This document shows, piece after piece, positions 7,505-63,480 of a stretch of 64,000 bases of DNA. Position 1 is the stretch's first letter; each line of letters starts with the position of its first letter. The DNA is taken from IMG/VR virus record IMGVR_UViG_3300030339_000027; one strand, written 5' to 3'. The translations under genes were made by a program, and so were the position numbers. Below the pieces are notes generated by a model. The model made no database searches. It saw only the letters and a program-made list of their open reading frames with translations, and was not told the DNA's origin. This DNA comes from an uncultured virus (IMG/VR IMGVR_UViG_3300030339_000027) (lineage: Duplodnaviria > Heunggongvirae > Uroviricota > Caudoviricetes).

Positions 7505-8070
7505 ACATAACAAATTATAAAACAGGCTTTACTATTGCTCCGTCAATACTAACAAATCAAATGGCAGTTACTATTGTAACCTATTTGTCAACAACAAGTA
7601 GTACTATATTAGCATCATTTGTTACTAATGATGAGATCAATTACGATTTTTTAAAAGACGGACTCTATGAGTTCTCCCAAATAATATTTTCTACTATAGT
7701 TACTCCTACTGGATATTATATTGCTAATAACAAAGTGTATTTAAACACAGTACTTGTACCAGATATGGTTACCTTATTAGATAATACAGCTATCACTAAA
7801 GACTCTGTAAAAATTGTAGTTATTAATGATATAGAAACTTGTTATTCTAATTTAATAAAAAAAGTCTTATCTAATAAATTATCTAAGATTTGTGATATTA
7901 CACATCATGAAGAAGAGATAAAAGATATTCTTCAAATGGCAATAACAGCCATCAAATATGCCTCAGAATTAGGTCTGATTTATCAAGCACAACGTATCGT
8001 TGAATCTATAATAAGTTCATGTGATATATGTGGTACTACTAATATTGAAAATTGCGGATGTAATGCGTGA
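7501..8070 (+). CDS. Hypothetical virion protein with Cys-rich C-terminus
   Basis: ATGA overlap with the portal stop; ends SCDICGTTNIENCGCNA. Confidence 0.65.
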   Translation: MNITNYKTGFTIAPSILTNQMAVTIVTYLSTTSSTILASFVTNDEINYDFLKDGLYEFSQIIFSTIVTPTGYYIANNKVYLNTVLVPDMVTLLDNTAITKDSVKIVVINDIETCYSNLIKKVLSNKLSKICDITHHEEEIKDILQMAITAIKYASELGLIYQAQRIVESIISSCDICGTTNIENCGCNA

Positions 8071-8230
8071 ATTAGAACTTAAATTACTAAATAGTTTTAT
8101 AAAAATTTTAGAATCTTATGAGGGAGGGAATCCCCTTCCTTATAAAAATTTAAAACTTTATATGGAATCTTATGAGATGAATATATTAACAGACCAAAAA
8201 TACTATGAATTCGTATGGGACAATTTATAA
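8063..8230 (+). CDS. Small hypothetical protein (~55 aa)
   Basis: In-frame ATG at 8063 overlaps the end of the previous gene, and the ORF bridges exactly to the next gene. Confidence 0.5.
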   Translation: MRELELKLLNSFIKILESYEGGNPLPYKNLKLYMESYEMNILTDQKYYEFVWDNL

Positions 8231-44749: not shown

Positions 44750-47700
44750 TGAGAAATAACTGCGGTTTAATATCAACGAACGCGTCCATCGAACTGATGG
44801 GCGTGTTTAATAATTTTATAAAAACACTCTATAAAAAAGGAGCAAAAAATAACTATGCAAGATTAGAGGATAAAATTGCAGAATATCTATATGACAAACA
44901 TAGGAAAGACGACAAAAATGATGCTTTAACTCCTGAGGAGAGTCATTTTATTGAACAACAGTTTATTTTATATACAGCTGCTGTTAAACCTATTTTAACT
45001 AAAAGTAGAATAGATACAAAATTTGCAGAAAAAATATGGGGAGATTCTACAGCCGTTAAACCTATAGAATTGTTTTTGGCTGATGTACAGAAAGCATTAA
45101 TAGAGGGGAGTGAAACTACATTAACAGAAAAAGTTAAAAATTTATATGAAGTTTCTCCAGAAGATACTTCTTTAATTCCAGCTCCTAAAGAAGAATTAAT
45201 TCCAACACCTCCATTAGAAGGTGAAACTAAAATTACTAAATTCACAGATATTAGTAATAAAATGGATTTAAAAGAAGTTTTTGCAAATGCAAATACTGCT
45301 TATTTATTATTAGAGAGAAGAGTTTCTAATCATATTGTTAGGAATTATTTAATCAATCAAGAAACAGGAGTGTATAACTCTTCAAGTAATTCTGTTGATA
45401 AATCTGTAAAAGCTAATAAAACAAGAATCTATAAAGAACTTATTAAGAATTTTGAGCAAAAGGGAATTAAATTTGTTGATAGTGAGAGAGATTATTACGT
45501 TAATGGAAGAATTAATGATAACATTAAGAGTGTATTAGATAGAATTGCTGATTATTATAAAAAATATGATGGGACTGGTATAACTAATATCAAATTAGAA
45601 GAATGGACACAAAATAATATAAATGAGATTTCTGATTTTATAAATTTTGTTACTATCTCTAACTTTGATAATTTGCTTTTATCTTATGGGAAAGGTATAT
45701 TCAAAATTTCTGATAGTTACCTAAACTCAGCTAATGAAAAGTATGATGAACCTAAATATGTTTTAGATATTGCTAGTAATATCAATGATAGTATATTTCA
45801 AACAGGTGAATATAACTTATCTGATGAACAATCATCATTGTTTAAGATGTTTATCTCATCTATGCCTTCTGTTACATTTGATAAACAAGTTTCTCATGAT
45901 AAAGAAATTGATTTGAATACTGTAAATACAGTAATGGCTAAATTATTACATGGAAATCTATTAGAAGGGGCTCCTATATATGATCCAACAAATAGTATGG
46001 AAAGTATGAAAGCTTTACTTGAATTTGCCATCAATAATTTTACAGGAGAAGGTAAAAAAATAAAGAGTTTTGATAAAATTGAAAAAGACACTTTACTCTC
46101 AGTTTATATGTACTTTTTCAGAAATAATGATGAACTTACTACTAAACATCCTAAAGTTCTATTAAATAACTCATTAAGATCAGCTATACAAGTAGCTTAT
46201 GGTAATGATACTGAATCTGGATTTAAAAATATCCCCTCATTTTATCATTTAGCCTCAAATAGTGAAGTTATTTCTGGGATGGACTACTTTAATGTTATAG
46301 TAAGTAACTTTGATAAAACATACTTAAATGAGTACACAGAGTATACCTACGATAAAGACCGAGGAACCATTACTGTAAATAGTCCTACTGAAAGATTAAT
46401 TAATAGTTCAGAAATTCAATTCACTAATAATTTAAATAATTTTATTAATCAAGAGTTTAATAAGACTTTCTTAGAAAATAGATATAAAGATGTTACTATT
46501 GAAGGTAAAGAGTCTGATATGCCTACAGTAAGATTTGAATTATCTAAAGGAGTATTTATTACAGCTAATTTAGCAAACGGTGGTATCTCAATTACAGATG
46601 GTATTAAAACTACTGATTCTAAAGCACTTGATTTTAAAATAAGTCCTATACAAGAACAAAAATTAGTAGAAATTTTAAATAAAATCTTACCCCAATTACA
46701 ATTAAGAGATGATAAAGGAAATGACTTTTATTATCCTCTTTTTACTCAAGTATTTTCTCCTACTCTGGATGATCATGTAGAAGCATTAACAGCTCTAGCT
46801 AAAGTGGCTGGATATGTAGCTTATACTTCATCTATGGTTAATGAAATAGGTAAAGATGGTTTATTAGGTAGTAAATGGATGAAAAATTTTGGAGCAGACA
46901 AGTCACCTTATATTAAAGATGATGAGGAGTTTTCTATTGCCAGAATGTTTCCAGGTTATAGTGATATAGCTAAAAATATTGGTAAAGGACTCTCTATTAT
47001 TAATGGTGAAACACATAAAGCTGTAATTAAAGTAGGTAATGTTACTGTTCCTACAATTGGAGAAGTAAGACATTTATATGCTCTTCCTAAATGGAGGAAT
47101 TGGTTAATCAAGCAAAATGGTAATAAATTAACTGGAATGCCTATTGCTAGTAATCTATTTATGAGAAATCCTGATTTTTTAAAAGGATTTAAAATTAGAA
47201 GTTTTGTAAAATCAGGTGATAATGTGAAACATTCCTCAGAGATGGCACCACTTGAAATAGCAACTACTTTCATAATGCATGACTATATAGCAGCTGCTAA
47301 TAAATACAATGAAGTTTACATTCAATCTACAGTATTCGCTGATAAAAATAGCCATAATAGTGTAGTTGTAAAACTAAATGAAGAAATTCAAATCCCAGGA
47401 ATTACTAATAAAATCTCTCTCTCAAATGTAACAGCTACTGAATTAAAACAAGCTGCTTTTTTGAATAATGCTACTTATTATAAAGCTATCTCAGATAAGT
47501 TAACTTCTACTTATATACCAGTGCTACAGACTCTATTGCCTGGGACTACAATTGAATCTACTTTACAAGGAGTTCATGATGCCATGAGCAAAGTTCAAGA
47601 ACAGGATTTTAGAAATGCTTTTTATAAACATTATAATGGAAGTGAGTATATTATTGAAGATTTAGGAATAGAAAAGAATAAAAAAGATGGCACATGTGGT

Positions 47701-50700
47701 TTATCTCCTTTATTAATTTACTATACTGAAATGTATACTGATAAATCAAAAACTACTCCTGCTTTTACAAAAATGATGAAAGCTAACGAATTGCTTTTTG
47801 CTAAAAGTTTAAACTCATATAATATGAATATTGAGTACATGGATGGTAAAGGAAGTCTTAATCCTTTATTTATTCGTAAGGGTACCTCAACTATTTTTGA
47901 TACTTTAAAAATAGCAGATGAAAAAACAGGAGATAGAATTACTAAAGAGAATTTTGAAAAAAATTGGGTAGATCCTTCTACAAAATACTTAACCATTTAT
48001 AAAGGAGGAGAATTAAATCCTTTGCTTAGACATTATTTTTACATGGATAACTATATTTCTGAGAATTTATCTCAAGCTAGTATGGGGACTATTCATAATC
48101 ATCCATTTAAAGGAAAAGCTAAGGCTAAACCTGGTACTTTTGAGTTCTTTACTGAAATAGAATCTGCTAAAACAGCTGCTATGTATAAAAGACAACTTCA
48201 AGGTACTCCCATGAAACCTTTGAATTTAAATTTAATCAATGGTGTACGTGAAACTATGAGTTCTGTATTTTTAACTGATATAAATAATCCAGTTTATACT
48301 AGTTTTGGAATTAAAGATAAGATGACAGTAACTGACGGTTCAGCGCAAGTAACCCCTTTACAATATATTCTACAAAACAATTCATTACTAGAAAATTCAG
48401 TTGGTCCTAATGCTAAGATGTTTAGTTTATTTATGGATCCAAAGTATAACTCATATGGTTTAACTAAATATGCAGAATTTGGTATTACTAATGAAATGAT
48501 TCAAAATTCTAAAGGTTCTACTTATGATCTTATGAATTTAATAGAAAAAAGTTACAGGTATAAACCTTTTACTAGGAGTATTACTATTGAGGAATTTAAT
48601 CCTAATACATTTGATTATGATAAAACTTTAGTACAATATACTCCAGATATCTTAAAAGATTTTAAGGGTAATAATATAACTATTGAAACAATTGCTCCTA
48701 ATGGATTATTCTATGTAAAAAATGATCAAGTATATGAGATTAAATCTTTAACAAGAGGTACTACTATAACTCAACCTTCTGGAGAAGTAATAGTAGCAAA
48801 AGGAGAATCAAATGATTTTCAGGTGCAGGCTATAAATTTAACCACTGGAATGGCCGAAGTTCCTAAATCTGTTAAAATAAATGATTTATTTGATTTATGG
48901 CAAGCTTTGGGGGCCGAAAATTCAGTATCTATTGATAAAGAAGGACAATATTCTGGTAGTAGAAATCCTGGAGAGACATTAAACTTTACTGAATCTGATG
49001 CTTCTCATTATGCTTTAGCAGAATTTGTAAATAGAGTAGGCCATAAAATGGATTCTAATCAAAAGGTTAATTTAATCAATAAATATGGTTTAAGAGATCT
49101 ATCAGATCCACATACTAATGCTATATACTCTAAAGAAACTGAGGCTAATTTTGTAAAATTATTTCCAGAGTTTAAAGTAAATAAAACTGACTTTAAAGTA
49201 CACAATCAGACAAATACATGGCAACCTTTAAAAGCAATGTTCATTGGAAAATATATCCACACATCTGCACAAAAGTCAGGTGCTATAAATGTGCATAATA
49301 TCGATGATGTGTATAACCAAACAAAACCAATTTATCCAGTAGATGTTCCAGCAATTTCTACAGGATTACTTATGACTACAGAGCATGAAGTAGAAGGCTC
49401 AGAGATCACTAAAATGACTCAAATCTATAGTGCTATAGAATTTATGGGTGATTCACATAATGTGTCTAGTGGGGTTTATAATGCCATTGCTGACGTCTTA
49501 AATATTAAACTTAAATCTTTATTTGATGCTACTGAATTCCAAAATGTAAATAAAGAGGCATTATATAAAGAAGTTACTGACAATTTGATTCGCACATTTA
49601 ACTCTAAAGACCAACAATCTATTGGTAAGTTCATTGGACAGATGGTAGAAAGAAATTCAGACGAGATAAAAGCATTTACAGCTCAAGCCAAAGAAGCCGA
49701 AGCTATCACAGAAGATGCTACAGGTGAAGAGCCTGGAGTAGCTAGTACTATGAGTATGAGTATAGTTAGAGATGGTAAAAGAATGCCTTTTAGTACTTAT
49801 ATGTACAGTTCTTTTATATCTCTTATGAGTAATTTTTTAAATAAAGAGGCTATTAAAGATAAACAGTCTGGCATTGCCTCTCCTATTAAACCTTCTGGAG
49901 GTATGCTTCAAGTGTATGATTCAGAAGATATTAATGGTAAAAAAGATGTACTTTTAAGAAAAAATTACGATAAATTAAATGCTGCTGAAAATATAGTGGA
50001 AGCCCCAATTACTATTGGAGAGATTTCTTTAAATGATTGGGTAAGAGAAAGTGATGGTAAAACTATGAAAGAGTATCAAGTAAATACTCCAGAAAAGTTA
50101 ATTGCACTTAAAAGAAAGGATACAGGAGAATCTGTTCCAGTTCAAACTTTTAAAGGATTTTGGACAAGAGGTACAGTACAAAATGATACTAATAATGTTT
50201 ATCTATTTGGCGATAATACTAACGATAGGATGGTTACTAAATATATTCCTGGGGCAACCCAAGCTGTTATTAGAGGACTTCCTAATGCTATAGGAATTGA
50301 TACAAAGAGAGATAGAGGTACTACAAGTAAATCATTCTTAACAGATGCTGATCTTCCTTGGTTTAAATCACATGTAGACGAGCAATTAAAGAAAGCACAA
50401 GCTTTAGGTAAACCTATTATCCTTCCAGAAGATGGAATTGGAACTGGAAAAGCTATGTTAAAAGAGAAAGCTCCTGCATTATTTGCATACTTAAATGAGG
50501 CTCTATCTAAATTAGAAACAACTAAACCTTCAAAAGTAAAATTTGTAAAATTATATGGTAAACCAAGAGATTTACAACCACCACTTTTAACTTTTAAAGT
50601 TATAGGTAAAGGAATGAAAGAATCTCCTATGTCTATTTATGAATTACCTGATTTTGCAATGGTTTATGACTATAAAGAAATTTTGGAAGATAAAAAACCC

Positions 50701-52353
50701 ATGACTGCAGAGTTAGGTTCTTTTTTAACTAAGAGATTTCCAGGAGAAAATATTGAGAAATTAATGAAGAATACCAAATTAGTAAACAATGCTTTACGAG
50801 TTAATATTCAAAGTATTTTTAATAGAATTGATACTCAACATAATGTCTTAATTAACGGAAAAGAGTATCCAGTAGAAGTGTTAACACGTTCTTCTGGGGA
50901 AGCCATTGGCCCAAATATTTATAGAACTATGTTTGACTTACCTAAGGGAACTTCAGTTAATCAAGTTACTGAAGATTTCTTATTTCAAAGAATGTATGAT
51001 AAATCTAAACCTGCTATCAATGATAAAAGTTGTTATGCTTACGTACAGAATCCAAATGGAAATCATATCTACATTTTTAATAAAGTTCCAACTGAATTTA
51101 CAGAATATACTCAAGGTAAACAGATAAAAGAAATTAATGGACAGTATTGGGTAGTAGATGGTAATGGTGATCCCAGATATATAGCCCCATCAGGTCTTAC
51201 AGGTACAGCACTTATTGGTGGAAAAAGAGTAGAAGTAATTGTCACTAATGATTTACCAAGTCTTCAAAAAACTCTTCAAGAGACTAAAAATTATGACAAA
51301 AGTTTACAAACTGGTAGAATTTATAATGTCAACGAAAATAATGATGCTATTCTTAAAGAAGAGTGTGCTATTCTAGCTAAAAAAAGATTTTCTAGTTTTA
51401 GAACCACTTTAAATTATATTGCAGCACGTATTCCCGGACAAGGTTTCCAATCATTTACTGATTTAAAACTTGTAGACTTTATTCATACAGAAGGTAATAC
51501 AGTTATGACTAACCATTTTACTTCCTGGTTAAAAGGAGAGGATTATGATATTGATAAAGGATTCTGGCTTGGATTAACTCTTAAAAATGGAATTGTAGTA
51601 GGTTGGGCTAATGAATTTGATTATAGCTCAGAAGAATCTCTTATAGCTTCTATGTCTCTGCCTTATCCTGATAAAAAATGGAGAAGTTTAGACACAGAAG
51701 ATAGTATTGATGATCCTGCAGAAGTTACACTTACTAACGAAGAAGTAGATAGCCTATTTGAAGAAAATATGTCCAAATTACGTAGTGATACTTTAGTTAA
51801 ATTAGGTAATATTGATAATTATAATTTCTTAGGAGAAAATCACACAGCTTATGAAGTACAAGAAAAAGTTAATGAATACTTTATGCAAACTATACCTTTA
51901 AATGCTATGGAAGATGCTGTTAAGAATAAAATGGCTTGGGGTATTAGAGATGCTGTAGTTAAACCTGTAAACTTAAATCATACAGAGTCTCCTATTGGAA
52001 TGGAAGAACTTAGAGATGAAGCCACGGAAGCTAATAGAGTTGTAAGTAATAATAATCCAATGAGTAAGGCTGATTTTCAATATGCAAACATGGTTGGTAA
52101 GAATGTAATTGGTATTGCAGCTGTTGCATTAAAGATTTGGAGTGCTGCTTCTTTCTACGGAAATGATAAAGTAAAAAAGGGAGAATTTGCTTCTATATTA
52201 ATGGATAAAAATCTCAAAATTAACGGAAAAAATCGTTATATTGCGAGCCAAGCAAACCTTAACTTTAGTGCGAAGGCTTCTACTGTAATTACAGATGAAT
52301 ATATTGCTGATCAAGTAGGTAAAAATAATATTGAGGAAAATTGTAATGGATAA
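44749..52353 (+). CDS. Virion-packaged two-barrel DNA-directed RNA polymerase, main catalytic polypeptide
   Basis: TDG (48331-48339), ARIPGQ (~51424-51441), catalytic GEDYDIDK (51535-51558; crAss-type D(F/Y)DID variant of NADFDGD) and GKNVIGIAA (~52096); TAATG coupling to the previous gene. Confidence 0.88.
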   Translation: MRNNCGLISTNASIELMGVFNNFIKTLYKKGAKNNYARLEDKIAEYLYDKHRKDDKNDALTPEESHFIEQQFILYTAAVKPILTKSRIDTKFAEKIWGDSTAVKPIELFLADVQKALIEGSETTLTEKVKNLYEVSPEDTSLIPAPKEELIPTPPLEGETKITKFTDISNKMDLKEVFANANTAYLLLERRVSNHIVRNYLINQETGVYNSSSNSVDKSVKANKTRIYKELIKNFEQKGIKFVDSERDYYVNGRINDNIKSVLDRIADYYKKYDGTGITNIKLEEWTQNNINEISDFINFVTISNFDNLLLSYGKGIFKISDSYLNSANEKYDEPKYVLDIASNINDSIFQTGEYNLSDEQSSLFKMFISSMPSVTFDKQVSHDKEIDLNTVNTVMAKLLHGNLLEGAPIYDPTNSMESMKALLEFAINNFTGEGKKIKSFDKIEKDTLLSVYMYFFRNNDELTTKHPKVLLNNSLRSAIQVAYGNDTESGFKNIPSFYHLASNSEVISGMDYFNVIVSNFDKTYLNEYTEYTYDKDRGTITVNSPTERLINSSEIQFTNNLNNFINQEFNKTFLENRYKDVTIEGKESDMPTVRFELSKGVFITANLANGGISITDGIKTTDSKALDFKISPIQEQKLVEILNKILPQLQLRDDKGNDFYYPLFTQVFSPTLDDHVEALTALAKVAGYVAYTSSMVNEIGKDGLLGSKWMKNFGADKSPYIKDDEEFSIARMFPGYSDIAKNIGKGLSIINGETHKAVIKVGNVTVPTIGEVRHLYALPKWRNWLIKQNGNKLTGMPIASNLFMRNPDFLKGFKIRSFVKSGDNVKHSSEMAPLEIATTFIMHDYIAAANKYNEVYIQSTVFADKNSHNSVVVKLNEEIQIPGITNKISLSNVTATELKQAAFLNNATYYKAISDKLTSTYIPVLQTLLPGTTIESTLQGVHDAMSKVQEQDFRNAFYKHYNGSEYIIEDLGIEKNKKDGTCGLSPLLIYYTEMYTDKSKTTPAFTKMMKANELLFAKSLNSYNMNIEYMDGKGSLNPLFIRKGTSTIFDTLKIADEKTGDRITKENFEKNWVDPSTKYLTIYKGGELNPLLRHYFYMDNYISENLSQASMGTIHNHPFKGKAKAKPGTFEFFTEIESAKTAAMYKRQLQGTPMKPLNLNLINGVRETMSSVFLTDINNPVYTSFGIKDKMTVTDGSAQVTPLQYILQNNSLLENSVGPNAKMFSLFMDPKYNSYGLTKYAEFGITNEMIQNSKGSTYDLMNLIEKSYRYKPFTRSITIEEFNPNTFDYDKTLVQYTPDILKDFKGNNITIETIAPNGLFYVKNDQVYEIKSLTRGTTITQPSGEVIVAKGESNDFQVQAINLTTGMAEVPKSVKINDLFDLWQALGAENSVSIDKEGQYSGSRNPGETLNFTESDASHYALAEFVNRVGHKMDSNQKVNLINKYGLRDLSDPHTNAIYSKETEANFVKLFPEFKVNKTDFKVHNQTNTWQPLKAMFIGKYIHTSAQKSGAINVHNIDDVYNQTKPIYPVDVPAISTGLLMTTEHEVEGSEITKMTQIYSAIEFMGDSHNVSSGVYNAIADVLNIKLKSLFDATEFQNVNKEALYKEVTDNLIRTFNSKDQQSIGKFIGQMVERNSDEIKAFTAQAKEAEAITEDATGEEPGVASTMSMSIVRDGKRMPFSTYMYSSFISLMSNFLNKEAIKDKQSGIASPIKPSGGMLQVYDSEDINGKKDVLLRKNYDKLNAAENIVEAPITIGEISLNDWVRESDGKTMKEYQVNTPEKLIALKRKDTGESVPVQTFKGFWTRGTVQNDTNNVYLFGDNTNDRMVTKYIPGATQAVIRGLPNAIGIDTKRDRGTTSKSFLTDADLPWFKSHVDEQLKKAQALGKPIILPEDGIGTGKAMLKEKAPALFAYLNEALSKLETTKPSKVKFVKLYGKPRDLQPPLLTFKVIGKGMKESPMSIYELPDFAMVYDYKEILEDKKPMTAELGSFLTKRFPGENIEKLMKNTKLVNNALRVNIQSIFNRIDTQHNVLINGKEYPVEVLTRSSGEAIGPNIYRTMFDLPKGTSVNQVTEDFLFQRMYDKSKPAINDKSCYAYVQNPNGNHIYIFNKVPTEFTEYTQGKQIKEINGQYWVVDGNGDPRYIAPSGLTGTALIGGKRVEVIVTNDLPSLQKTLQETKNYDKSLQTGRIYNVNENNDAILKEECAILAKKRFSSFRTTLNYIAARIPGQGFQSFTDLKLVDFIHTEGNTVMTNHFTSWLKGEDYDIDKGFWLGLTLKNGIVVGWANEFDYSSEESLIASMSLPYPDKKWRSLDTEDSIDDPAEVTLTNEEVDSLFEENMSKLRSDTLVKLGNIDNYNFLGENHTAYEVQEKVNEYFMQTIPLNAMEDAVKNKMAWGIRDAVVKPVNLNHTESPIGMEELRDEATEANRVVSNNNPMSKADFQYANMVGKNVIGIAAVALKIWSAASFYGNDKVKKGEFASILMDKNLKINGKNRYIASQANLNFSAKASTVITDEYIADQVGKNNIEENCNG

Positions 52354-54853
52354 AGGATGTATACATACATACAAAGGCGTAGAATATAGGAATTATCAAG
52401 ATTTAAAAAATGCATTAATTGAGGAGCAGAGTAGTCACTACTTTGCTCCTTTTATGGCTGCAGTTTTAGAAAAATTAAAGAATAATCCCGATATAACGGG
52501 CGTGCAAGAGATTGAAAAGGTCGTGAAAGAAATTTCTGATCAATTTATGTTGAAAGAAGATGTTAGTTTAACTTTGAGTCAGTTATTAAGTGCTGCTACT
52601 GATAATGCTAAAGAATTAATCTTAGCTAAAATTAATGCAGGACCTGAAACTGCTGGAGTTTATGCATACTTAACCATGTTAGGAGTTCCTTTTAAAGAAA
52701 TTGCTCAAATGATGAAGAGTGATGCAGTTAAATGGGTTATTGAGAATTCTCGTAAAAATATTTTTGATAAACAAACTGATTTTAATAGTATTAAAAGTTC
52801 TATTAAAGAGTTTGAAAATGGCCCTAACGTATATAAATATTTAGATTTTGATAGGGCCAATATTTTTTCTAATATTCTAAGAGATAGTTTAAAAAATAGT
52901 ACTTTTTTAGGAGCACTTCCTTATGGTAATATATTTAAAGATCCCGAAGTAATTAAGATTCTCTCTAATACTGATAAAAAGAAAGGCCCAGTCGTAAAAA
53001 TGCATTCTATAGGTGCTTTAATGTCTCCTATAGATATTACAAGTAAAGTTGGAGATACAATAGTAACTAAATCTTTAGATTTTAATATTTCTAGAGAAGA
53101 TATTAGTGAATTTTACAAAACTTTGCAAGAAGGTAATTTTATAAAAGAGTCATATGAACCTGTAGTTAATAAATATACAGAAGACGAGGATATGGATATG
53201 GGTTGGGAAGATGGTGAAATTAGAAGTAATAAAATTCCTGTAAAAATTGAGGTATCTAGATTTATACAAAAAATGATAGAATATTTAGATAAAGCTCCAG
53301 AAGGAGACATATCTGAATTTGCTAATATTATGGAAGATTCAAAAGAAGTTCTTATCTTAGGTAGAATGCTTTCTATAAATCAAGGTATTAAAACTGATAG
53401 TTACTCTCAATATGCTTTTTTTCAGAGAGTTACTGATTATATAATTGAAAAAAGCAAAGGTAAAATGTCTTTAGAAACTCCAGAGAAAATGATGTCTGAG
53501 ATGATGGAAGAAATGCCTACTCATAGAGTAGACCCTAAATTTTTAGAAGAAGTTATGAAAAGATTCGATTTTAAAAAATTTTTAGGGATAGGTTTAACAC
53601 AAGAAGACGCTACTATTTATAGAGAAACTAGTAAATTGTGGTATAATAAGATTAAATCCTCCTTTAATATTTTAGCTATTGTCTCTGATACTCCCCATTT
53701 TAATGCAATGCTAGGAGTTTCCTCTTTAATGGAAAATATGAAAAGCATGCTCTCAGTTAAAGCAAAATTAGTTGATAAATTAATTAAAGATGTTTATGAT
53801 AAACATATTATAGCTTCAGATTTAACTGAGGAACAGATGGAGTATAAAACAATTGCTGATAAGGACTATTTTAAAATTATGGATTTTGCAAATGATTCTA
53901 TTATATTAAAGTGGATTCGTTCTTTAGACGACTCTAAGAGAATTTTTGCACATGATTCAAATACTTATCACACTATTGTTGATAATAAGATTGTTAAAGT
54001 TACTGAAGAAAATAGGGAGAGATATCCACGTAAAATTGATGTTAGTAGTGCTGAGGGAAGACTAGATTTTATAGACATGGTTCATGAGATGATGTCTGTG
54101 TTAAAAGATGGAAAATTCTTAGTTAATGGTGAGTATAAAGAACATCCTCTTCTAAAAAACAATGCTTTTATACATTCATTCGATATTGATAAGAAAAGAG
54201 ATCCTTTAACTGGTAAAAACAATAAGTTCTATAAGCTTCCTATGAATATATTAAATGTAAATGAAGCTAATACTCATAAGTTTAATAGTTACTTAATTGG
54301 ATTTTCAGACTTAGCTAAAATTGAGTATAATGGAGTTAATATACAGAATTTATTATTCTTATATAATACTTTTATTCACAGGGATAAAATTAATAGAGAC
54401 TCTTTAACAAAATTGTTTGAATCTTCTACCTCTGGTATTGAACATACTATGATGGGTGATTTTATTAAATGGGCTGGAGATTTTGATTGGAATGAAAAAG
54501 AATTACAATCTTTATCCGAATCTAAAGAGTATGATTATGATATAGACGATATTATAATTAAAGGATTGGCTACTAAGATCTTCTCAAAAAACTTGGATAG
54601 AAATGTAGGAAAATATGCTTATGCAGTCTTGTATAATGCTTCTACAGGAGAGTCTACAAAGCAATATTATGAGTGGAACAATAGTGCTAGTACTTATCAA
54701 AAATATGATCACTTTAGTAGTGATTTAGCAATAGCTTCTAGTGCGGGATCACAAATTGGAGTACAAAGAGGAAATGCAAATGACTTTAATGCTACTTTAA
54801 GAGAAATCTCAAATAGAGGAATAATAATAAACAATGTAAAAATAGAATGTTAA
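52346..54853 (+). CDS. C-terminal part of the virion RNA polymerase (bridge-helix-like region) encoded as a separate gene
   Basis: LSQLLSAATDNAKELILAKINA near the N-terminus. ATG at 52346 overlapping the previous stop is preferred over TTG at 52331. Confidence 0.65.
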   Translation: MDKGCIHTYKGVEYRNYQDLKNALIEEQSSHYFAPFMAAVLEKLKNNPDITGVQEIEKVVKEISDQFMLKEDVSLTLSQLLSAATDNAKELILAKINAGPETAGVYAYLTMLGVPFKEIAQMMKSDAVKWVIENSRKNIFDKQTDFNSIKSSIKEFENGPNVYKYLDFDRANIFSNILRDSLKNSTFLGALPYGNIFKDPEVIKILSNTDKKKGPVVKMHSIGALMSPIDITSKVGDTIVTKSLDFNISREDISEFYKTLQEGNFIKESYEPVVNKYTEDEDMDMGWEDGEIRSNKIPVKIEVSRFIQKMIEYLDKAPEGDISEFANIMEDSKEVLILGRMLSINQGIKTDSYSQYAFFQRVTDYIIEKSKGKMSLETPEKMMSEMMEEMPTHRVDPKFLEEVMKRFDFKKFLGIGLTQEDATIYRETSKLWYNKIKSSFNILAIVSDTPHFNAMLGVSSLMENMKSMLSVKAKLVDKLIKDVYDKHIIASDLTEEQMEYKTIADKDYFKIMDFANDSIILKWIRSLDDSKRIFAHDSNTYHTIVDNKIVKVTEENRERYPRKIDVSSAEGRLDFIDMVHEMMSVLKDGKFLVNGEYKEHPLLKNNAFIHSFDIDKKRDPLTGKNNKFYKLPMNILNVNEANTHKFNSYLIGFSDLAKIEYNGVNIQNLLFLYNTFIHRDKINRDSLTKLFESSTSGIEHTMMGDFIKWAGDFDWNEKELQSLSESKEYDYDIDDIIIKGLATKIFSKNLDRNVGKYAYAVLYNASTGESTKQYYEWNNSASTYQKYDHFSSDLAIASSAGSQIGVQRGNANDFNATLREISNRGIIINNVKIEC

Positions 54854-54854
54854 C

Positions 54855-57800
54855 ATGGCATGTACACTAACGTTCACTTTAGGTGGAATAAAATATAATA
54901 TACCTGCAGAAGGTAATCTTGCTGATTATGACGGAAAAAACCTCACAGATATATTAGGATCTTTAGATTCTCATACACAAATTAATTTATTAGAGAATAT
55001 TTTAAAATATTCTAACATTCAGCCGTATGATTATGAAGAAAATCCAACTGTAACTAATTTAATAGCTTCTAATAATATTCCGAATATTAGTGTAAGCAAG
55101 TTAACAGAAAAATTAGGAGATTTAGTTTTACCTGATGGATCTAATCATTTTAAATTACGTCAAGTAGTTTTAAGTATGTTAAATGAAAAGACTGATAAAA
55201 TATCTTTAGTTTCTGCACAAATCACAGATGGTTCCAAAAAAGGACATGGAGTATTTATTTCACAAACTGGAAGTATCTATGTGCATGCTAAACCTAATGA
55301 TAAAATTGATACTCTTGAGGATTATTTTTTAGGAAAGGATAGCAAAGTCTTACTAGAACGTCTTGCTCATGAATTAACTCATAGTAAATTAGATGCATTA
55401 ATGGTTAATCAACCAGAACTTGCCAAGGAATTAGTTGAGGAATGGAATTCAAAAAAAGGAGGATTATCTGATGAATTTAAGAGTATTAAAAGTAGTATTG
55501 ACAAGTTAAAAACAAATGAAGCAAAAGCAAACGAAATTATTGCTTATTACTTTAGTGATTTCCAATTACAAGGGGCTTATCAAAGTAAAACACTAGAAGA
55601 TGCTTTTAAAAGTATGGTTTCAAATATAATTCCATTAGAAACAATAGTTTCTACTTCTACTCCTGGCTATTTTGATTCTTCCAATCCATATGAGGATTAT
55701 GACCATTCTAGATATAAGAATCATTGGGATGATCCTGTTTGGCAATATAGACATCCTGAATTAGAACCTCCATTCACAGGAGATACTAATGCTTCTCTTC
55801 AAAAAATGGTTGCAGAGATAGATCCAACTTCTGAGAATTACCAAGCAGATAAAGCTAAACAAATCTTAGCTAGATTTAATGCTAATACCTCTGATATTCA
55901 AGAAAATTCTGAATTTAAATACCAGAAATATGATGTTTCTTATGGAGCACCTATTGTTATTGATGATTTTAATAGAGATATTCAAATCTTAAGATTAGCA
56001 GAAAATGACTTGGTATTAGTAAGTAAAGATATCTTCCTAAATCCCAAAACAAAAGAATGGGAAGCTAGGCCTACTAAAAAAGGTGAGGAAAAGTCTTCAT
56101 ATCGTCCTGTTATTAGTACTTATATTAATGCTAATAATGAAGTAATGATTAATCTACCTATTAAAGATGGTAGTGGTAAAACATATTCTCTACCAGCTAA
56201 GTTTGTAGAAAGTTTACGTAAATATGATGGAGATTTAATAGATACTCCTTATAATAAAGAAAAAGCTAAAGAATATGCAGATTGGATGGTTGCTAATGTA
56301 AATTCAGCATATGGTGATGATCCTGCCGATAGTTCTATAATTAGAACTATAGATATTACTTCTAAAACTGGAAAAAGCTTTCAAATTTCAGTGGCTTCTA
56401 ACTATGAATCTTATGGATTTAAATTTTATAACCAAGAATCTGCTAGAGAAATCTATGATGGAGCTGAAGTTGGAGATGTAGTTAAAGTGTTTATAAAAGA
56501 AAAAGGAGATAAGAAAGCGGGAGGATATCGCGCTAAAATACTACGTAAATTTGGAAACTCAGTTGAAGTAGTTACTTCTAAAGGTGCTGTACTTATTGTA
56601 AAACCCTCTGCTATCAATGAGGTAATCTATTTAAAAGAAAATCATCCAGACTTTTTATCACAAGTAGAAAATATTGATAAAGGGACTATTAGCCAAGATC
56701 TTATTGATGATGGTAATAGTCAATTTAGAAAATATCGTAAAGTAAATTTTGTATCACAAAATAAAAAAGATGGGGAATTTCAAGATAAGATTAATGATTA
56801 TTTTGATATTTATTCAAAAGAAGATTCTGCTATTAAAGTAGAGAGACGTCGCGCTGAAGTTAAAAAACTTAAAGCCGGAGATCTTATAAAGGTTAAATGG
56901 TATTACACAGATACAAAAACTAAAGAAGATAGAGAAGTGTCACACTGGTATCCAGTAGTTACTAAAACCTCTGATTTAGTTTACTATTACAATTCTACTT
57001 CTGAGAAAGTATCTTCTGTGAATATTTTAGATGGTAAAGGATATGAAATCTATGGATTAGCTATAAATAATACAAATTCTTCTAAATTATTTGATGAATT
57101 TAATGAAATCAGAAAAAGTATAGAAGGATTACGTAGAGATGATACTGGTACATTACTCTCAGATGATGCTATTAAAAATAACTTAGGAGAAGCTCTTAGA
57201 AATGCAGAACCATCTAGTTTACAAGACATTTATCATATCACAGAAATAGAAGATGTAGATGAAGTAGCAGCTGGAGAAGATAATGACCTTAAATTATCAG
57301 TATCTCAAGTACAAAGAGGTAGTATTGTTAAAGCCTATGTATTTGATATAGATGAAGAAGGTAGAGACAAAAAAACTAAAATTTATAAATGGTTTGTAGT
57401 AACTGGCTTTGATGAAAACACTGGAAGACCTATATGTGTTACACAAACTAAAGATAAAAATGGTAAAACTGGTGTATATAAAGAATATCCAATTGAATTT
57501 CAGAATATTAAAGCAATAGGTCATAGATTAACTGATAATGCTGATTTAGGAATTTATGGAAATAAAACTCTAAAAGAATACTTAGATAAGTTAAGAAAAA
57601 CTTTTGATACTATTAGTGAACCTATTTTTATTACTCAAGCTGAAACTCCTAAATATGAGAGATCAAATAGAACTTTTAACACAGCTTTATATGGTTTACT
57701 TAAAAACGGAAAGATGGGTTATGCAGTGTCTGATAAATATGTAATAGAACAATTTAAAGATAAGACTGATTTTGAAGAATGGAAGAAAAATACACCAGAA

Positions 57801-59039
57801 GCTAAAGGATTAACCTGGACTTATACTGAACCTAAGTTGTATATTTTAAGAGGTAAACAATATATGAAGAAACTCTATATGAATTACTTAGAAGTACACG
57901 GTTTACTTAATTATGAACCCAACATACATGATAGTGTAAGAATTGGTGATATAGTTACTGAAACATGGAAGTACCAAGGAGATGATGTTAAAATGGACTC
58001 TATGATTACTGCTAAAACTCCTACAGGATTATGGGTGGAACGTTTAGGAAAAAGTCCTTCAGGGGATTCTATTTCGGTTAGAAAAAAGATATATAGACAT
58101 AGAGAAGGAGTTGAATATCCTCAGATCTCAGATGTATACTTACATAAAAAACGTGATACTACCTCAACTTCTAGAGAAGACGCTAAAAGTAGACAAACTA
58201 ATCTTTTAATTGGTAATACTCAGTATGAAGAGAAGATTAAAAATCTAGATCAGGAAACTAAAGAAAGAAAAGCAAGTACTTTAAAAAAACCACTTAAAGC
58301 TTCTTTAGATACTGATAATTTCTATAAGAGTAGAGATTCGGAAAGTAAGATTATGGAAATTGTAGATAAACTACAATCTACTTATAATGTGCCTATTATA
58401 ATGCTTAGAACTAATGAGATTGCTCAAAGTTTTGGTGATATTTTAGGAACTGATGCTACTAAAGTTAGAGGATTTATAAATGAGGGTAAAGTTTATATAA
58501 ATTTAGATAAAGCTTCTTCTGCAGAACCTCTACATGAGATGGCACATATTATATTAGAGAGTATTAAAGCCAATGACTATAATTTATATCAAACGGTTAT
58601 TAATTCTGTTAAGTCTCATCCATACTATGATGCTATAGCTAAAAATTATCCTAATAGGGCCCCGGAAGACTTAGATGAAGAAGTATTTGTTTCTATTTTT
58701 GGAGAAAAATATAGAACAGTTACTCATAATCAATATAATAAGTCTTGGTATGATCAAAATGAAAGTATATTTACAAATATCTGGAATTATATGAAAAATA
58801 CTTTTGCTTCTATTTTTGACAATAAATCTATCTTGGATATTCCAAATGAAAAGCTTGCTATGATGCCTTTAGACGAATTAATTAGTACCTTTGGGGACAA
58901 TTTGATGGAAGGTAAATTTAAACACGTTTTAAATTATGATACATCAACTCTTGAGAGAAAAGTGACCAATTTAAAGACAAATCTTTTATCAAATGAAGAT
59001 GAATCAGAAAGTTACCTTAGAAAAACTTGTAATACTTAA
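54855..59039 (+). CDS. Giant virion protein with two zincin-like (HExxH) metallopeptidase motifs and central KOW/SH3-like repeats
   Basis: LAHELTH (55368-55382) followed by NEIIAY; LHEMAH (58533-58547) preceded by GFINEGKVYIN and followed by DEEVFV. Confidence 0.72.
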   Translation: MACTLTFTLGGIKYNIPAEGNLADYDGKNLTDILGSLDSHTQINLLENILKYSNIQPYDYEENPTVTNLIASNNIPNISVSKLTEKLGDLVLPDGSNHFKLRQVVLSMLNEKTDKISLVSAQITDGSKKGHGVFISQTGSIYVHAKPNDKIDTLEDYFLGKDSKVLLERLAHELTHSKLDALMVNQPELAKELVEEWNSKKGGLSDEFKSIKSSIDKLKTNEAKANEIIAYYFSDFQLQGAYQSKTLEDAFKSMVSNIIPLETIVSTSTPGYFDSSNPYEDYDHSRYKNHWDDPVWQYRHPELEPPFTGDTNASLQKMVAEIDPTSENYQADKAKQILARFNANTSDIQENSEFKYQKYDVSYGAPIVIDDFNRDIQILRLAENDLVLVSKDIFLNPKTKEWEARPTKKGEEKSSYRPVISTYINANNEVMINLPIKDGSGKTYSLPAKFVESLRKYDGDLIDTPYNKEKAKEYADWMVANVNSAYGDDPADSSIIRTIDITSKTGKSFQISVASNYESYGFKFYNQESAREIYDGAEVGDVVKVFIKEKGDKKAGGYRAKILRKFGNSVEVVTSKGAVLIVKPSAINEVIYLKENHPDFLSQVENIDKGTISQDLIDDGNSQFRKYRKVNFVSQNKKDGEFQDKINDYFDIYSKEDSAIKVERRRAEVKKLKAGDLIKVKWYYTDTKTKEDREVSHWYPVVTKTSDLVYYYNSTSEKVSSVNILDGKGYEIYGLAINNTNSSKLFDEFNEIRKSIEGLRRDDTGTLLSDDAIKNNLGEALRNAEPSSLQDIYHITEIEDVDEVAAGEDNDLKLSVSQVQRGSIVKAYVFDIDEEGRDKKTKIYKWFVVTGFDENTGRPICVTQTKDKNGKTGVYKEYPIEFQNIKAIGHRLTDNADLGIYGNKTLKEYLDKLRKTFDTISEPIFITQAETPKYERSNRTFNTALYGLLKNGKMGYAVSDKYVIEQFKDKTDFEEWKKNTPEAKGLTWTYTEPKLYILRGKQYMKKLYMNYLEVHGLLNYEPNIHDSVRIGDIVTETWKYQGDDVKMDSMITAKTPTGLWVERLGKSPSGDSISVRKKIYRHREGVEYPQISDVYLHKKRDTTSTSREDAKSRQTNLLIGNTQYEEKIKNLDQETKERKASTLKKPLKASLDTDNFYKSRDSESKIMEIVDKLQSTYNVPIIMLRTNEIAQSFGDILGTDATKVRGFINEGKVYINLDKASSAEPLHEMAHIILESIKANDYNLYQTVINSVKSHPYYDAIAKNYPNRAPEDLDEEVFVSIFGEKYRTVTHNQYNKSWYDQNESIFTNIWNYMKNTFASIFDNKSILDIPNEKLAMMPLDELISTFGDNLMEGKFKHVLNYDTSTLERKVTNLKTNLLSNEDESESYLRKTCNT

Positions 59040-59049
59040 AATAATATAA

Positions 59050-62000
59050 ATGAGTAAATGTAAATTCACCTTAACAGTAAAAGGTAATAATATAGAATTT
59101 GATACTGAAGAACAATTAAATTCATATCTTAAAACCAATTATGACACTCTTTCTAGAGGTCATATTGGCGGAGATGTGGAATTATCTACTGTATTAGAAG
59201 GGAAAGAAAAGACAAAATTAGAACAAACTGTGGCTAAATTACAAACCATTGCTTCAAAGACTCCTGAGATAACTACTGTAGAGTTTAACGAGAATGGTGA
59301 GAGAGTAATTAAATCAGCCTATGAAGGTGTTACTAAAAGAATAAAGCGTCTTGCAAAAGCCGGGGGATTACCTGTGACTTATTATGATGAAAAAAATTAT
59401 ATTGATAATAGATTGATTCAAATACGAAGCGCACTTCGTAGGGGGGTAGGTCCGGAAACTTTAAAGGCAGACTATGCTAATATTATCTCTAAATTTACCA
59501 CAGGAGTTGAGCAATTAAAAGGAGCAGAGTCTGAAACTTATGATAAGCTAACTAAAGCTCTTATTATGCCTTTAATTATTAAAGAACAGGCACAAAGAAA
59601 ATTATTGGGAACATTTGGAACAAACTTACATAGAATGGCAGAGACATACTTTGCAAACAGATTAGAAAACTCAGATAAGTCTTTTTCCATTGGTAATTTC
59701 CCCGCAGGTATTACAAATCTTTCTACAGAAGGAAAAGAAAATTATTTACAGTATTTAAAAGAATTAACTAACTTTTTAAAGTCAGAACATGGAGATGATG
59801 TAGTTCTTCTCCCAGAATATAAAATATTTGATGATGCTACCAAATTAGTAGGAATTATTGACTTATTAGCAATAGATAGTATGGGTAAAGTTCATATTTA
59901 TGACTTTAAAGCCTCATATAAAGATCCTTCTGATTGGCATTCAGCTAAACAGATTGAATTTAAATATCAATTAGGCATTTATTCTAATATGTTGAAAAAT
60001 AAAGGATTTGATGTACGTGGAATACAGGTTTTACCTATTACCATGCTTGATATTAATTTTGATGATGAAACTATTCCAAGATTAGCCGAACATCTTCCTT
60101 TTGATGCAAGTCCCTCTGAAGATATTAAATATAATATCAATAATAGTGTTATTCCTTTAACAACTGCTGCTTTCTTTGAATCTACATCTAATAGTCATGC
60201 TATTATCACTGAAAATCTAAAAAAGGCTTGGGGATACAATTTAAAATTAAAATCATCCTACGCTAATGTTCAAGCTTTTAAAGATAGTAGTAGAGTTACA
60301 ACTGATATAAATAAACCTGGAGTATTCACTTTCTGGGATAATATTAAACGTAAGTTTATTGATAATACTGCTGAGAGTTTAGATAAAAACATTGAGAATT
60401 ACTTAAAATCAGAAGCTGAGGCAACCTCTTCTGAGTTACTCCGTTTTAAAGATTGGATGATTGCCTCTATTGCTGGGAAAAAACAACTTATAGACTTCAA
60501 AAGAAGAAGTGAGATAGGTAATATTCATATGGTAAGAGCTTTTGAAAAATATACTAAAGGAGGATGGACTTTAGTTGCAGATGATGCAGATCTAGATAGT
60601 TTAGGACTTTTAATGTTTGTAAATGAATCTAATAAGTCCGTAGAATTTGTATCTTATACAGTAAATGCTTTAAATAAAAAGGTTAAACTTCCAATTGGTT
60701 CTACTATAGTAGGAAACTTTATTTCTGATGGTAAAGGACTTGAATTACCTGATTTATTACCAGCTACAAATGGCAACATAGAATTATTAAAGACTTATTT
60801 CTATATTAATGAAAATGCAGAAAAATTAAAAGATTTTACTGTAGGTAGAGTTATGGCTTATAATCCAATTAATTCTGAATTTGTAGTAAATAACAATGAT
60901 GTGCTTAAAACTAATTTTGGATATTTAATCTCTAGATTAGAAGGTAAAAATACAACTTTAGAAGTAAATACTACTGATAAATTATTAGCTCTTCATAATC
61001 AATTTGTTGAAATTATAACTGAACCTTCTACTTCACAATCAGAAAAAGATTTAGTGAATAAATACTTAACCACTTTAAATGATTACCAGAACACTGGCCG
61101 TATGGAGAGTCTTAAAATTATACAAAAAGATTTACATATGTTATTGAACAAATATGGTCAACATAAAGTAAATAGTTTTATGTTATTTGAGGAAAAACTC
61201 TATGGTATGATCAGTGAGGCTATTGTAGCAGAAGCTGACTTAAGAATTTCTACCTCAGAAAAAGATATTCCTAAATATAGTGCAAATGGTACTATGCTTT
61301 CTAATCCTGGAAGTATTGGCTCTCGTAATTTACGTGTATTTGTGGATGTAATTAAGTTATCTATGCATAAAATACGTAGAAGACAAACTGAATTCAAAGC
61401 AACTAACGTTGAGATCTTTGATAAGTATCTAACTTCTAAAGGAAAAACTAATTTACGTAGAGCTACTGTTGGAGACAACATTAGGGCTTATGATTCTTTG
61501 TTTGAGGGAAATTCTCCTAATAAAGAACTTATTTTAAAGAATCCATATGATAAAAATACTCCACTAAATAATGAGGAAAGAGAATTTTTAAAGTATTTCT
61601 TAAAAGAAATTAATTTTAGAAGATTTAACACTCAATCTCTTGATTCTGAAACAGCTCAAGACATGATTTCAAGTAAGGAATGGTTTAAATTGCCTTTATT
61701 AAGAGCATCTAGTTCTTCAAAAGCTTCTAATATGAGTCTTAAAGGATTAAGAGATGCTACTACAGAAAATTGGAATAGTTTCTTAAATACTAATCACTTA
61801 TTTGATGAGAAAGATGAACAAGCTGTAAAAAACAGAAGTGAGGATATGTTTACTATGTTTAATGAGTTTAATTTTCATGCACATCCTGATGCTCGTATGA
61901 AATTGATCGAGCAGCAGAGTCCTAATGCATTTGAAACTAATTTAGAGAGAGTTTTAGACAATTTTGTATTTTCCGCTATTAGAAAAGAAGAATATGATGA

Positions 62001-63480
62001 CATGTTACCTATTGCTAATGCTGTACGTACTACTATCGCTTATAATGGATTTGGAGTAAACATTCCAGTTCCTAATGCCTTAGAATTTATGGATAAGTAC
62101 TCACAAGCAGCTGTTTTCAATGAAAAATCTATACCACCTGAATTAAGAGGAGTATACAAAGGGATTAGTATAATTAAGGATATTACTAGTAAAATGAACT
62201 TAGGTATTAACCCATTAAGTGGTTTTGTTAATACTTTACAGGGTTTATGGGGTAATGTGTCTAGAATTACTGCTGGTAAGTACCCAAACATGTTCGGAAA
62301 AGAAGATTATTTTTGGGCTTTGAATCATTTTTGCAAAGATTCCTCTGAATCTATGACTAAATTGACTGTTTTGGAGAATTTAAACATGATTTATGGTATC
62401 AATAATATGGATATTAATATCCTCTCAGAGGTCATGTCAAAGAATAATAGTGGTCTTTTAAACTTCAAATCCAAGTATTTATACTGGATGGCGTATGCTC
62501 CTGACTATTTTAATCGTATGACTCTTTTTATTGCTCAAATGCATAAAGATGGTTGTTTTGAAGCTCATAAGATGGTTGGAAACCAAATGGTATATGATTG
62601 GACACTTGATAAAAGATTCTCTGAGTATGCTAAAGGAAACACTTCACACCCAGACTATAATAATCAATTCTCTTTATATATGGCTGTTTTAGCTGATTTT
62701 AATAAAGAAGGGTATGCCTTAACAAAAGGACAAGCACTACCTTATGCTTATACTGGAGCGCAAAGAGAGAGTATGAAAATGTTCTCTGATAGTATTCATG
62801 GTTACTATGACCATGAAAGTAAAACACTTGCAAATAATACTATTTTAGGGGTTTTATTCTTTCAGTTTAAGACCTGGATTACTGCTAAAAAAGATCAATG
62901 GGCTCTTCATCCTGATACATATGCTATTGGGGATTATGGACCACTTGTCTTAGATGGGGTAAAGCAATTTATAGATAAAGATGGAAATCAGACTACTGAA
63001 GATACTGGTATGCCTATGATGAAAATGCAAGGCTCTTTTCAAGAGGGTATATTATATTCATTAAAAGGTATGGCTCAAGATTTTCAAGAAGCTAAATGGG
63101 ATATTGGTAAATTATGGGAAATGACGAAAGAACATCCTGAGAGAATGTCTAATATGAAATTAATGCTTTTTGATTTAGGAGTAGTTATAGCTATGGCAAT
63201 TACAACAGGTCTTATTGATTGGGATCAACTAAAAAAAGATGACACTTATGCTTATACTATGTATAGAGCCATTATCAGATCTAGTTCAGATTTAAATGTT
63301 TTAAATAACGTTACCACTGTATTAGATATGAAAAAGTCACCATTTATGTCGTTTAACTATATGGGAGATTTAATTTATGGGATGGGACCTGTATTAACAG
63401 GTGATCAAGATTTCTCTAAATATCTCTTCACAAATACTGGTCTTTTGAGGCCGTTTACACCGCTGCTTGCAACAAAGTAA
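59050..63480 (+). CDS. Giant virion protein with PD-(D/E)xK nuclease domain and helical, partly hydrophobic C-terminal region
   Basis: FGTNLHRMAE...PEYKI...GIIDLLAID...IYDFKAS...YQLGIY is a RecB/AddB-like nuclease signature. Confidence 0.78.
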   Translation: MSKCKFTLTVKGNNIEFDTEEQLNSYLKTNYDTLSRGHIGGDVELSTVLEGKEKTKLEQTVAKLQTIASKTPEITTVEFNENGERVIKSAYEGVTKRIKRLAKAGGLPVTYYDEKNYIDNRLIQIRSALRRGVGPETLKADYANIISKFTTGVEQLKGAESETYDKLTKALIMPLIIKEQAQRKLLGTFGTNLHRMAETYFANRLENSDKSFSIGNFPAGITNLSTEGKENYLQYLKELTNFLKSEHGDDVVLLPEYKIFDDATKLVGIIDLLAIDSMGKVHIYDFKASYKDPSDWHSAKQIEFKYQLGIYSNMLKNKGFDVRGIQVLPITMLDINFDDETIPRLAEHLPFDASPSEDIKYNINNSVIPLTTAAFFESTSNSHAIITENLKKAWGYNLKLKSSYANVQAFKDSSRVTTDINKPGVFTFWDNIKRKFIDNTAESLDKNIENYLKSEAEATSSELLRFKDWMIASIAGKKQLIDFKRRSEIGNIHMVRAFEKYTKGGWTLVADDADLDSLGLLMFVNESNKSVEFVSYTVNALNKKVKLPIGSTIVGNFISDGKGLELPDLLPATNGNIELLKTYFYINENAEKLKDFTVGRVMAYNPINSEFVVNNNDVLKTNFGYLISRLEGKNTTLEVNTTDKLLALHNQFVEIITEPSTSQSEKDLVNKYLTTLNDYQNTGRMESLKIIQKDLHMLLNKYGQHKVNSFMLFEEKLYGMISEAIVAEADLRISTSEKDIPKYSANGTMLSNPGSIGSRNLRVFVDVIKLSMHKIRRRQTEFKATNVEIFDKYLTSKGKTNLRRATVGDNIRAYDSLFEGNSPNKELILKNPYDKNTPLNNEEREFLKYFLKEINFRRFNTQSLDSETAQDMISSKEWFKLPLLRASSSSKASNMSLKGLRDATTENWNSFLNTNHLFDEKDEQAVKNRSEDMFTMFNEFNFHAHPDARMKLIEQQSPNAFETNLERVLDNFVFSAIRKEEYDDMLPIANAVRTTIAYNGFGVNIPVPNALEFMDKYSQAAVFNEKSIPPELRGVYKGISIIKDITSKMNLGINPLSGFVNTLQGLWGNVSRITAGKYPNMFGKEDYFWALNHFCKDSSESMTKLTVLENLNMIYGINNMDINILSEVMSKNNSGLLNFKSKYLYWMAYAPDYFNRMTLFIAQMHKDGCFEAHKMVGNQMVYDWTLDKRFSEYAKGNTSHPDYNNQFSLYMAVLADFNKEGYALTKGQALPYAYTGAQRESMKMFSDSIHGYYDHESKTLANNTILGVLFFQFKTWITAKKDQWALHPDTYAIGDYGPLVLDGVKQFIDKDGNQTTEDTGMPMMKMQGSFQEGILYSLKGMAQDFQEAKWDIGKLWEMTKEHPERMSNMKLMLFDLGVVIAMAITTGLIDWDQLKKDDTYAYTMYRAIIRSSSDLNVLNNVTTVLDMKKSPFMSFNYMGDLIYGMGPVLTGDQDFSKYLFTNTGLLRPFTPLLATK

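Follow-up and report, generated by a model that had tools for sequence, protein, structure and literature searches.

A Virion RNA Polymerase Gene of a CrAss-Like Phage, Cut between Bridge Helix and Trigger Loop, and the Cysteine-Tipped Protein Ends at the Break

Giant Cargo Genes of the Locus

The window, the whole stretch of 64,000 nucleotides analyzed here, is part of a crAss-like phage, as indicated by a Crass_capsid major capsid protein (56.9 bits, for a cut-off of 27) and a portal protein. The 23 sequencing runs listed with the stretch or a part of it are all peat metagenomes, with no RNA run among them. The nearest relatives are large phages that have recoded stop codons and inserts in the DxDxD motif of the polymerase gene. 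Large genomes, recoded stops, DxDxD inserts and fragmented RNA polymerase genes are also ascribed to zeta-group crAss-like phages in the available text of PMC7886860, and from the fit to this description the phage is presumed to belong to that group.

Five giant ORFs on the plus strand form a cargo block at 36593-63480. The first (36593..44749; 2,718 aa) has weak matches to P-loop helicases and ends in TCN*, at junction 1. It is followed by the two genes with which this study is concerned, ORF A (44749..52353; 2,534 aa), the N-terminal chain of a virion RNA polymerase, which starts with MRNNC (Cys 5) and ends in NCNG (Cys 2532), and ORF B (52346..54853; 835 aa), its C-terminal chain, in which Cys is found only at residues 5 and 835. 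Further downstream are a gene of 1,394 aa (54855..59039) that starts with MAC and ends in KTCNT, and the last giant gene (59050..63480; 1,476 aa), which starts with MSKC, carries a PD-(D/E)xK domain (27.5 bits, cut-off 22), and has no Cys at its far end. The polymerase is thereby encoded inside the giant cargo block of a crAss-like phage. A DUF7831 domain (87 bits) lies in ORF A at residues 1800-1917 (50146-50500), upstream of the catalytic motif, and a PHROGs search returned nothing for ORF A or ORF B.

Position of the Cut in the Catalytic Core

The catalytic DYDID motif occupies residues 2265-2269 of ORF A (51541..51555, plus strand) and corresponds to DFDID, residues 1361-1365, of gp66 of phage phi14:2. 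The bridge helix follows at residues 2436-2466 (52054..52146), with GKNVIGIAA starting at residue 2450 (nt 52096). After a conserved ANxN motif, a new C-terminal tail begins at approximately 52264 and runs to 52353; it resembles the tails found at the last junction of the block and terminates in ...EENCNG*, with Cys 2532 at 52342-52344 and the TAA codon at 52351-52353. ORF B opens at the ATG at 52346, in the +1 frame relative to A, and begins with MDKGC. Its new N-terminal head, which extends to approximately 52435, contains Cys 5 (52358-52360) and then YKG..Y..YQDLK.AL. The trigger loop lies at residues 72-110 of B (52559..52675), with SAATDNAK at 82-89. These coordinates bear out the first-pass annotation, which had placed DYDID and GKNVIGIAA near the end of ORF A and SAATDNAK some 80 aa into ORF B. 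It had also described the ATG as overlapping the stop codon; the two ORFs do overlap, by 8 nt, but the ATG lies just before the stop codon rather than on it. A Shine-Dalgarno-like GAGGA/GGAG is present 7-8 nt ahead of the ATG of B, both in the window (52333-52337) and in the relative L088 (1347-1350). A CG-rich patch remarked upon at 52490-52530 amounts to 3 CpG in 41 nt, which is matched by 0.9% of the 41-nt windows of the block, and it is absent from the 81% identical relative L004, although nearly the same residues are encoded there; it was dismissed as noise.

In gp66, the bridge helix has been assigned to residues 1529-1559 and the trigger loop to residues 1598-1636 (10.1101/2020.03.07.982082). 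When a profile of 53 relatives was compared with gp66, GKxxIGIxA fell on the bridge-helix sequence GKSGVGITAN and SAATDNAK on NAFVDNAK, which belongs to the trigger loop, so that the two elements of the window correspond to the gp66 intervals just given. The profile match proper starts at DIDK and extends as far as the bridge helix (with one target at E 2e-7), and the trigger stretch, although weak at 2.2 bits, is exact in its motif. Like the gp66 family, the pair of ORFs thus has the D[FY]D[IV]D motif and homologs of both bridge helix and trigger loop, but the catalytic core is not contained in one polypeptide, as the trigger loop sits on ORF B. With the bridge helix on A and the trigger loop on B, the gp66 alignment places the cut between these two elements. 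Locating the break by alignment to gp66 had been proposed beforehand, and it displaces the original labels by one element: AxxDxAK had been attributed to the bridge-helix region and the break set between catalytic loop and bridge helix, whereas GKNVIGIAA aligns to the bridge helix, AxxDxAK to the trigger loop, and the break comes after the former and before the latter.

Structure prediction is consistent with this assignment. A model of the unsplit core of the relative L055 (pLDDT 75, falling below 50 at 286-315, between the two helices), which takes in only the DxDxD end of the second double-psi barrel, had the gp66 structure (PDB 6VR4) as its best match by VIA, at a middling level (Z 6.6, rmsd 9.6, 260 residues aligned), and as its first match by Foldseek (E 0.031). 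For the model of ORF B (pLDDT 74), 6VR4 was again the best VIA match (Z 10.2, rmsd 4.7, 406 residues aligned, up to residue 2100; Z 6.0 for the next row), and it was not among the rows listed by Foldseek. The pLDDT of this model is below 50 in the head (residues 1-29) and in the trigger loop (74-88), and hence no fold is claimed for the head. PDB sequence searches with A, B, and a 24-row profile yielded only weak ferritin rows and no 6VR4.

The likeness to gp66 (KC821624 gp077) thus comprises the order of the DxDxD loop, bridge helix and trigger loop in the alignment, the top structural matches of the predicted models, and a matching position within a block of giant virion genes; in gp66, Cys occurs only at residues 3 and 2179. 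The difference is that a single chain of 2,180 aa makes up gp66, and here there are two, of 2,534 and 835 aa, cut after the bridge helix and before the trigger loop. That A and B form a two-chain enzyme is very likely.

Conservation of the Split in a Peat-Phage Clade

The integrity of the junction was checked with contigs, rather than reads, from 4 of the 23 runs (X5, X7, X8, and X16). An independent X5 contig spans 51700-52886 with 0 differences, and an X7 contig spans 52282-52797 with 3 substitutions and no gap; no listed piece from X8 or X16 bridges the junction. The indel that might have simulated a break is absent from both independent contigs, and the split is not an assembly error. The same junction is found in L004 and L005 (81% identity), where the tail Cys codon differs synonymously (TGT/TGC). 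In L088 (54% identity), both ORFs are intact and the split is kept with other letters: A ends in KEKCNEL, B starts with MSCKYTYKG, and the overlap measures 11 nt. The real gene fission that had been suspected is borne out by the contigs and by its retention at 81% and 54% identity.

In a tree of the A-side core (25 rows), which was rooted on phi14:2 at the end of a very long branch, the three split forms make up a single clade (support 95/99) among unsplit rows, the nearest of which, L055, is joined to them with weaker support (92/96). Among 120 listed of 152 homologs of B, five stand-alone B proteins, that of the window included, start with M[DN]KGC, down to 54% identity. Outside the clade, 78 loci were inspected, of which 76 come from the 80 best IMG/VR matches out of 214 (many of them near-duplicates) and two from GenBank. 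The DxDxD and DNAK motifs are in one frame in 47 of them (43 distinct), 302-354 codons apart, with eight reading through recoded TAG or TGA. The other 31 have no intact DxDxD nearby; an insert interrupts the motif in 29 of these, and the frame that follows the insert carries both later elements. Bridge helix and trigger loop share one frame in the 78 related loci. Likewise, the best 150 of 869 matches among 50% clusters brought 128 new proteins, 59 of them longer than 2,500 aa; in 55 of these a single chain carries DxDxD and, downstream of it, DNAK, and four fell outside the search pattern; no new Cys-headed B was found among the 128. A search of IMG/VR with the head module recovered only this clade and one chance match (L098). 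The expectation that these motifs follow one another in a single chain elsewhere thus holds for the relatives, for phi14:2, and for crAss001. To judge from the tree and these comparisons, the gene was cut once, in the ancestor of this peat-phage clade, and the split is old.

The insert in the catalytic motif was found in 29 of the 82 listed loci. It is mostly ~1.07 kb long, follows GSD(Y/F), ends with ...AAACG before DIDK, and looks like a group I intron. Its carriers are L001, L010, L013, L016, L017, L021, L022, L024, L027-L035, L051, L052, L054, L063, L067-L069, L071, L073, L074, L076, and L078, in which it lies near 8000-9200 (near 20200-21280 in L001).

Terminal Cysteines at the Cargo Junctions

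The five giant ORFs of the window contain 16 Cys among 8,957 residues, eight of which are found at the eight junction-facing ends, and no Cys occurs within 12 residues of the two outer ends of the block. The break in the polymerase carries the same signature, Cys 2532 and Cys 5, as had been pointed out at the outset, and the chance of a Cys at both ends of a new junction is ~3e-5. Cys 835, at the other end of ORF B, is invariant in 53 rows. The two cargo genes that precede the giant block (30679-36591; 1,364 and 605 aa) have zero Cys, so that a chain linked by terminal Cys would begin only at 36593.

The rule extends to the relatives. From 93 distinct pairs of adjacent large ORFs, chosen regardless of Cys, 17 near-duplicates and five pairs situated >9 kb upstream were set aside (four of the five lie upstream of the block without a Cys pair, and one has the pair). 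All 71 remaining distinct junctions have a Cys in the last 6 residues of one protein and in the first 12 residues of the next, with one Cys conserved per end. The tail Cys is followed by 0-5 residues without a fixed motif and is encoded by TGT in 51 cases and TGC in 20; the head Cys is encoded by TGT in 68 of 71, and the gaps between ORFs range from -11 to +14 nt. In phi14:2, gp078, gp077, and gp076 have 4 Cys among 5,398 residues, all at junction ends. In crAss001 (L092, 16120-34724), the terminal Cys of gp47, gp50, and gp49, which are virion-borne cargo proteins (PMC10172136), are kept in chain order even though gp47 is on the opposite strand, and gp50 has DxDxD, bridge helix and trigger motif in one unsplit chain. 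In six TGA-recoded loci that lack the middle gene (L048, L053, L054, L058, L060, and L075), the polymerase is directly followed by the last gene, with the Cys pair kept.

L002 (3982-13256) has its upstream helicase-like giant gene divided into pieces of 1,540 and 1,555 aa. When set against an unsplit relative, these match residues 8-1294 and 1391-2687, and a Cys pair is present at the new junction; by these matches, this single record represents a second, independent fission with a Cys pair. In L036 (12147-14797), where relatives have one gene of ~800 aa, there are two (333 and 549 aa), with a Cys at each of their ends, but only the second piece matched the unsplit relatives, and fission is unproven in this case.

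A cause at the DNA level, namely TGT next to TAA or ATG, was considered for the Cys and rejected in view of the variety of codons and gaps and the strand reversal in crAss001, though a DNA-level bias could add to the TGT skew of the head codons. The strand of gp47 in crAss001, the codon and gap variety, and the pair in L002 argue for selection on the proteins rather than on the DNA.

Size and Origin of the New Ends

From the GK motif to the trigger motif, 167 residues are counted across the break, as compared with 106-143 in 25 unsplit loci. The excess of ~25-60 residues (<200 nt) is too small for an intron or an intein. The earlier suggestion that a short joining module was gained at the break agrees with this count, both new ends being capped with Cys and kept as such in relatives. 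The 16 residues that precede the tail Cys score best on the profile of last-junction tails (3.8, 9.3, and 9.6 bits, with background fractions of 0.0015, 0.0002, and 0.0002) and below zero on those of the other two junction classes, and it is plausible that the tail was copied from the last junction of the block. For the head, comparison with last-junction heads gave a weak signal in L088, whose score is reached by 10 of 863 background segments, and no signal in the window, where 258 of the 863 reach it, and a copy from the same source is unproven.

The junction segments are under purifying selection relative to L004, the first 30 codons of B showing 5 synonymous and 2 replacement codon changes. 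Although the length of the overlap differs (8 and 11 nt), the Cys pair persists down to 54% identity, which likewise shows selection. The fission had been put forward as independent support for a linkage of the cargo proteins. Its retention does testify to selection, but a junction that was copied may have brought the pair along complete, which detracts from the independence.

Models for the Joining of the Two Chains

According to the model that we favor, the gene was cut in a variable insertion that lies on the surface between bridge helix and trigger loop, and the ends so produced acquired short extensions tipped with Cys, a tail on one side and a head on the other, probably as copies of a different junction in the cargo block. 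Translation of the two chains would be coupled, and both would then be packaged; tail and head would dock, and the two Cys would form a disulfide once the particle is oxidized. The halves would thereby remain, along with the other giant cargo proteins, in a single head-to-tail chain, be ejected together at 1:1, and refold in the cell into one enzyme through the interface of bridge helix and trigger loop. A fission would not survive unless its new ends bore this clasp as well. The reducing environment of the cytoplasm does not allow disulfides to form, and packaging must therefore rest on non-covalent docking. A co-fold of the last 338 residues of A with the first 210 of B (17-row alignments), run without controls, scored 0.17 against a mark of 0.32 and was given weight on neither side. 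We infer the donor junction, the packaging of both chains, their activity, the docking and the disulfide, and consider the account as a whole, a two-chain virion RNA polymerase docked and disulfide-tied into the cargo chain, to be moderately probable.

Two known systems provide precedents. In the archaeal Rpo1N/Rpo1C (A'/A'') pair, a natural split is found between bridge helix and trigger loop as well (PMC8131849, PMC2675907), and a functional enzyme with this cut therefore has a precedent. The archaeal enzyme is a cellular multisubunit polymerase, the available texts of these two papers make no mention of terminal Cys modules, and the likeness is convergent, not inherited. In the pre-ejectosome of cyanopodophage A4, a disulfide joins Cys1715, at the C-terminus of gp27, to Cys5, at the N-terminus of gp26 (PMC12002296), which is the placement of Cys seen here. 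The A4 case involves a single bond and no polymerase, and the phage, which is T7-like, belongs to another order, whereas the block described here has four serial junctions, one of them inside an enzyme core. For crAss001, virion disulfides are named for tail and vertex proteins only, and no cargo-to-cargo bonds are reported, in the available text of PMC10172136.

Alternatively, the two-chain polymerase might be real but its ends joined by a zinc clasp or by purely non-covalent docking, with the Cys not engaged in a disulfide. A non-covalent step is required anyway before oxidation, and His 7 is found next to Cys 5 in the B head of the window and of P0002-P0005. This His is absent in L088, however, and one conserved Cys per end over the 71 junctions does not supply enough ligands for a single pair to hold a zinc site, which makes this explanation rather unlikely.

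It is quite improbable that the Cys ends are instead ligated by a peptide or thioester bond, as in trans-splicing, so that a single chain is restored. An N-terminal Cys that faces a C-terminal Asn-Cys-Asn bears what we take to be a faint likeness to splicing chemistry, which would favor ligation. Cargo is moreover encoded as one polyprotein in some crAss-like phages (10.1101/2020.03.07.982082), crAss002 gp33 having 4,245 aa. Nevertheless, the extra residues are too few for an intein domain, a Pfam search of the window gave no Hint match such as a split intein would have, the residues beyond the tail Cys follow no fixed motif, and gp66 works as a free chain (10.1101/2020.03.07.982082).

A programmed +1 frameshift or slippage that yields one chain appears less probable still. 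All three split forms share an offset of +1, and zeta-group polymerase genes with internal frameshifts have been described (PMC7886860). On the other hand, the frame of B is open before its ATG for just 4 codons in L088 and 9 in the window, the longest base run is 3-5 nt (none over 3 in L088), and the length of the overlap varies while the start Met and the two Cys are retained, just as ordinary junctions retain them.

Finally, a self-splicing intron, an assembly error or a decaying gene, for which the intron-like inserts at DxDxD in the same gene might be invoked, is largely refuted and hardly credible, as independent contigs bridge the junction gap-free, the excess is of less than 200 nt in a segment conserved as protein, Rfam gave 0 matches up to E 1 at the A/B break, where a group I intron would be expected to match, and both ORFs are intact at 54% identity. 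The zeta-group breaks of PMC7886860 are described in its available text as intron-like or unexplained; the break between A and B has no insert and has capped protein ends.

Significance for Crass-Like Phages

Precedents exist for the enzyme family and, separately, for the split site. We did not find their combination or the Cys rule in the literature consulted, which included the available texts of PMC10136315, 10.1101/2022.12.01.518664, PMC13434306, and the supplement of PMC7886860, but neither the bioRxiv supplements nor, for PMC10172136 and PMC7886860 (Supplementary Fig. 13), figures or extended-data tables.

CrAss-like phages are the most abundant gut viruses, and how megadaltons of protein are packed and ejected in order through a narrow tail is an open question (PMC10172136, PMC13434306). 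The Cys at each new end hints at an end-to-end tether, and the terminal-Cys rule offers a simple test in the cultured phages phi14:2 and crAss001. A further consequence of the split is a two-barrel polymerase that would have its trigger loop on a separable chain, which would permit a direct assay of the role of this loop in the family; the split also repeats, by convergence, the archaeal site. In a broader view, on which we are evenly divided, the Crassvirales may link their giant injected proteins, the polymerase among them, by way of terminal Cys into a single covalent thread that runs head to tail, with a portable tail-stop-start-head cassette that permits cuts inside a catalytic core to be relinked at the protein level. 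If this is true, the locus would represent a natural experiment in cutting inside a catalytic core and relinking the pieces as proteins.
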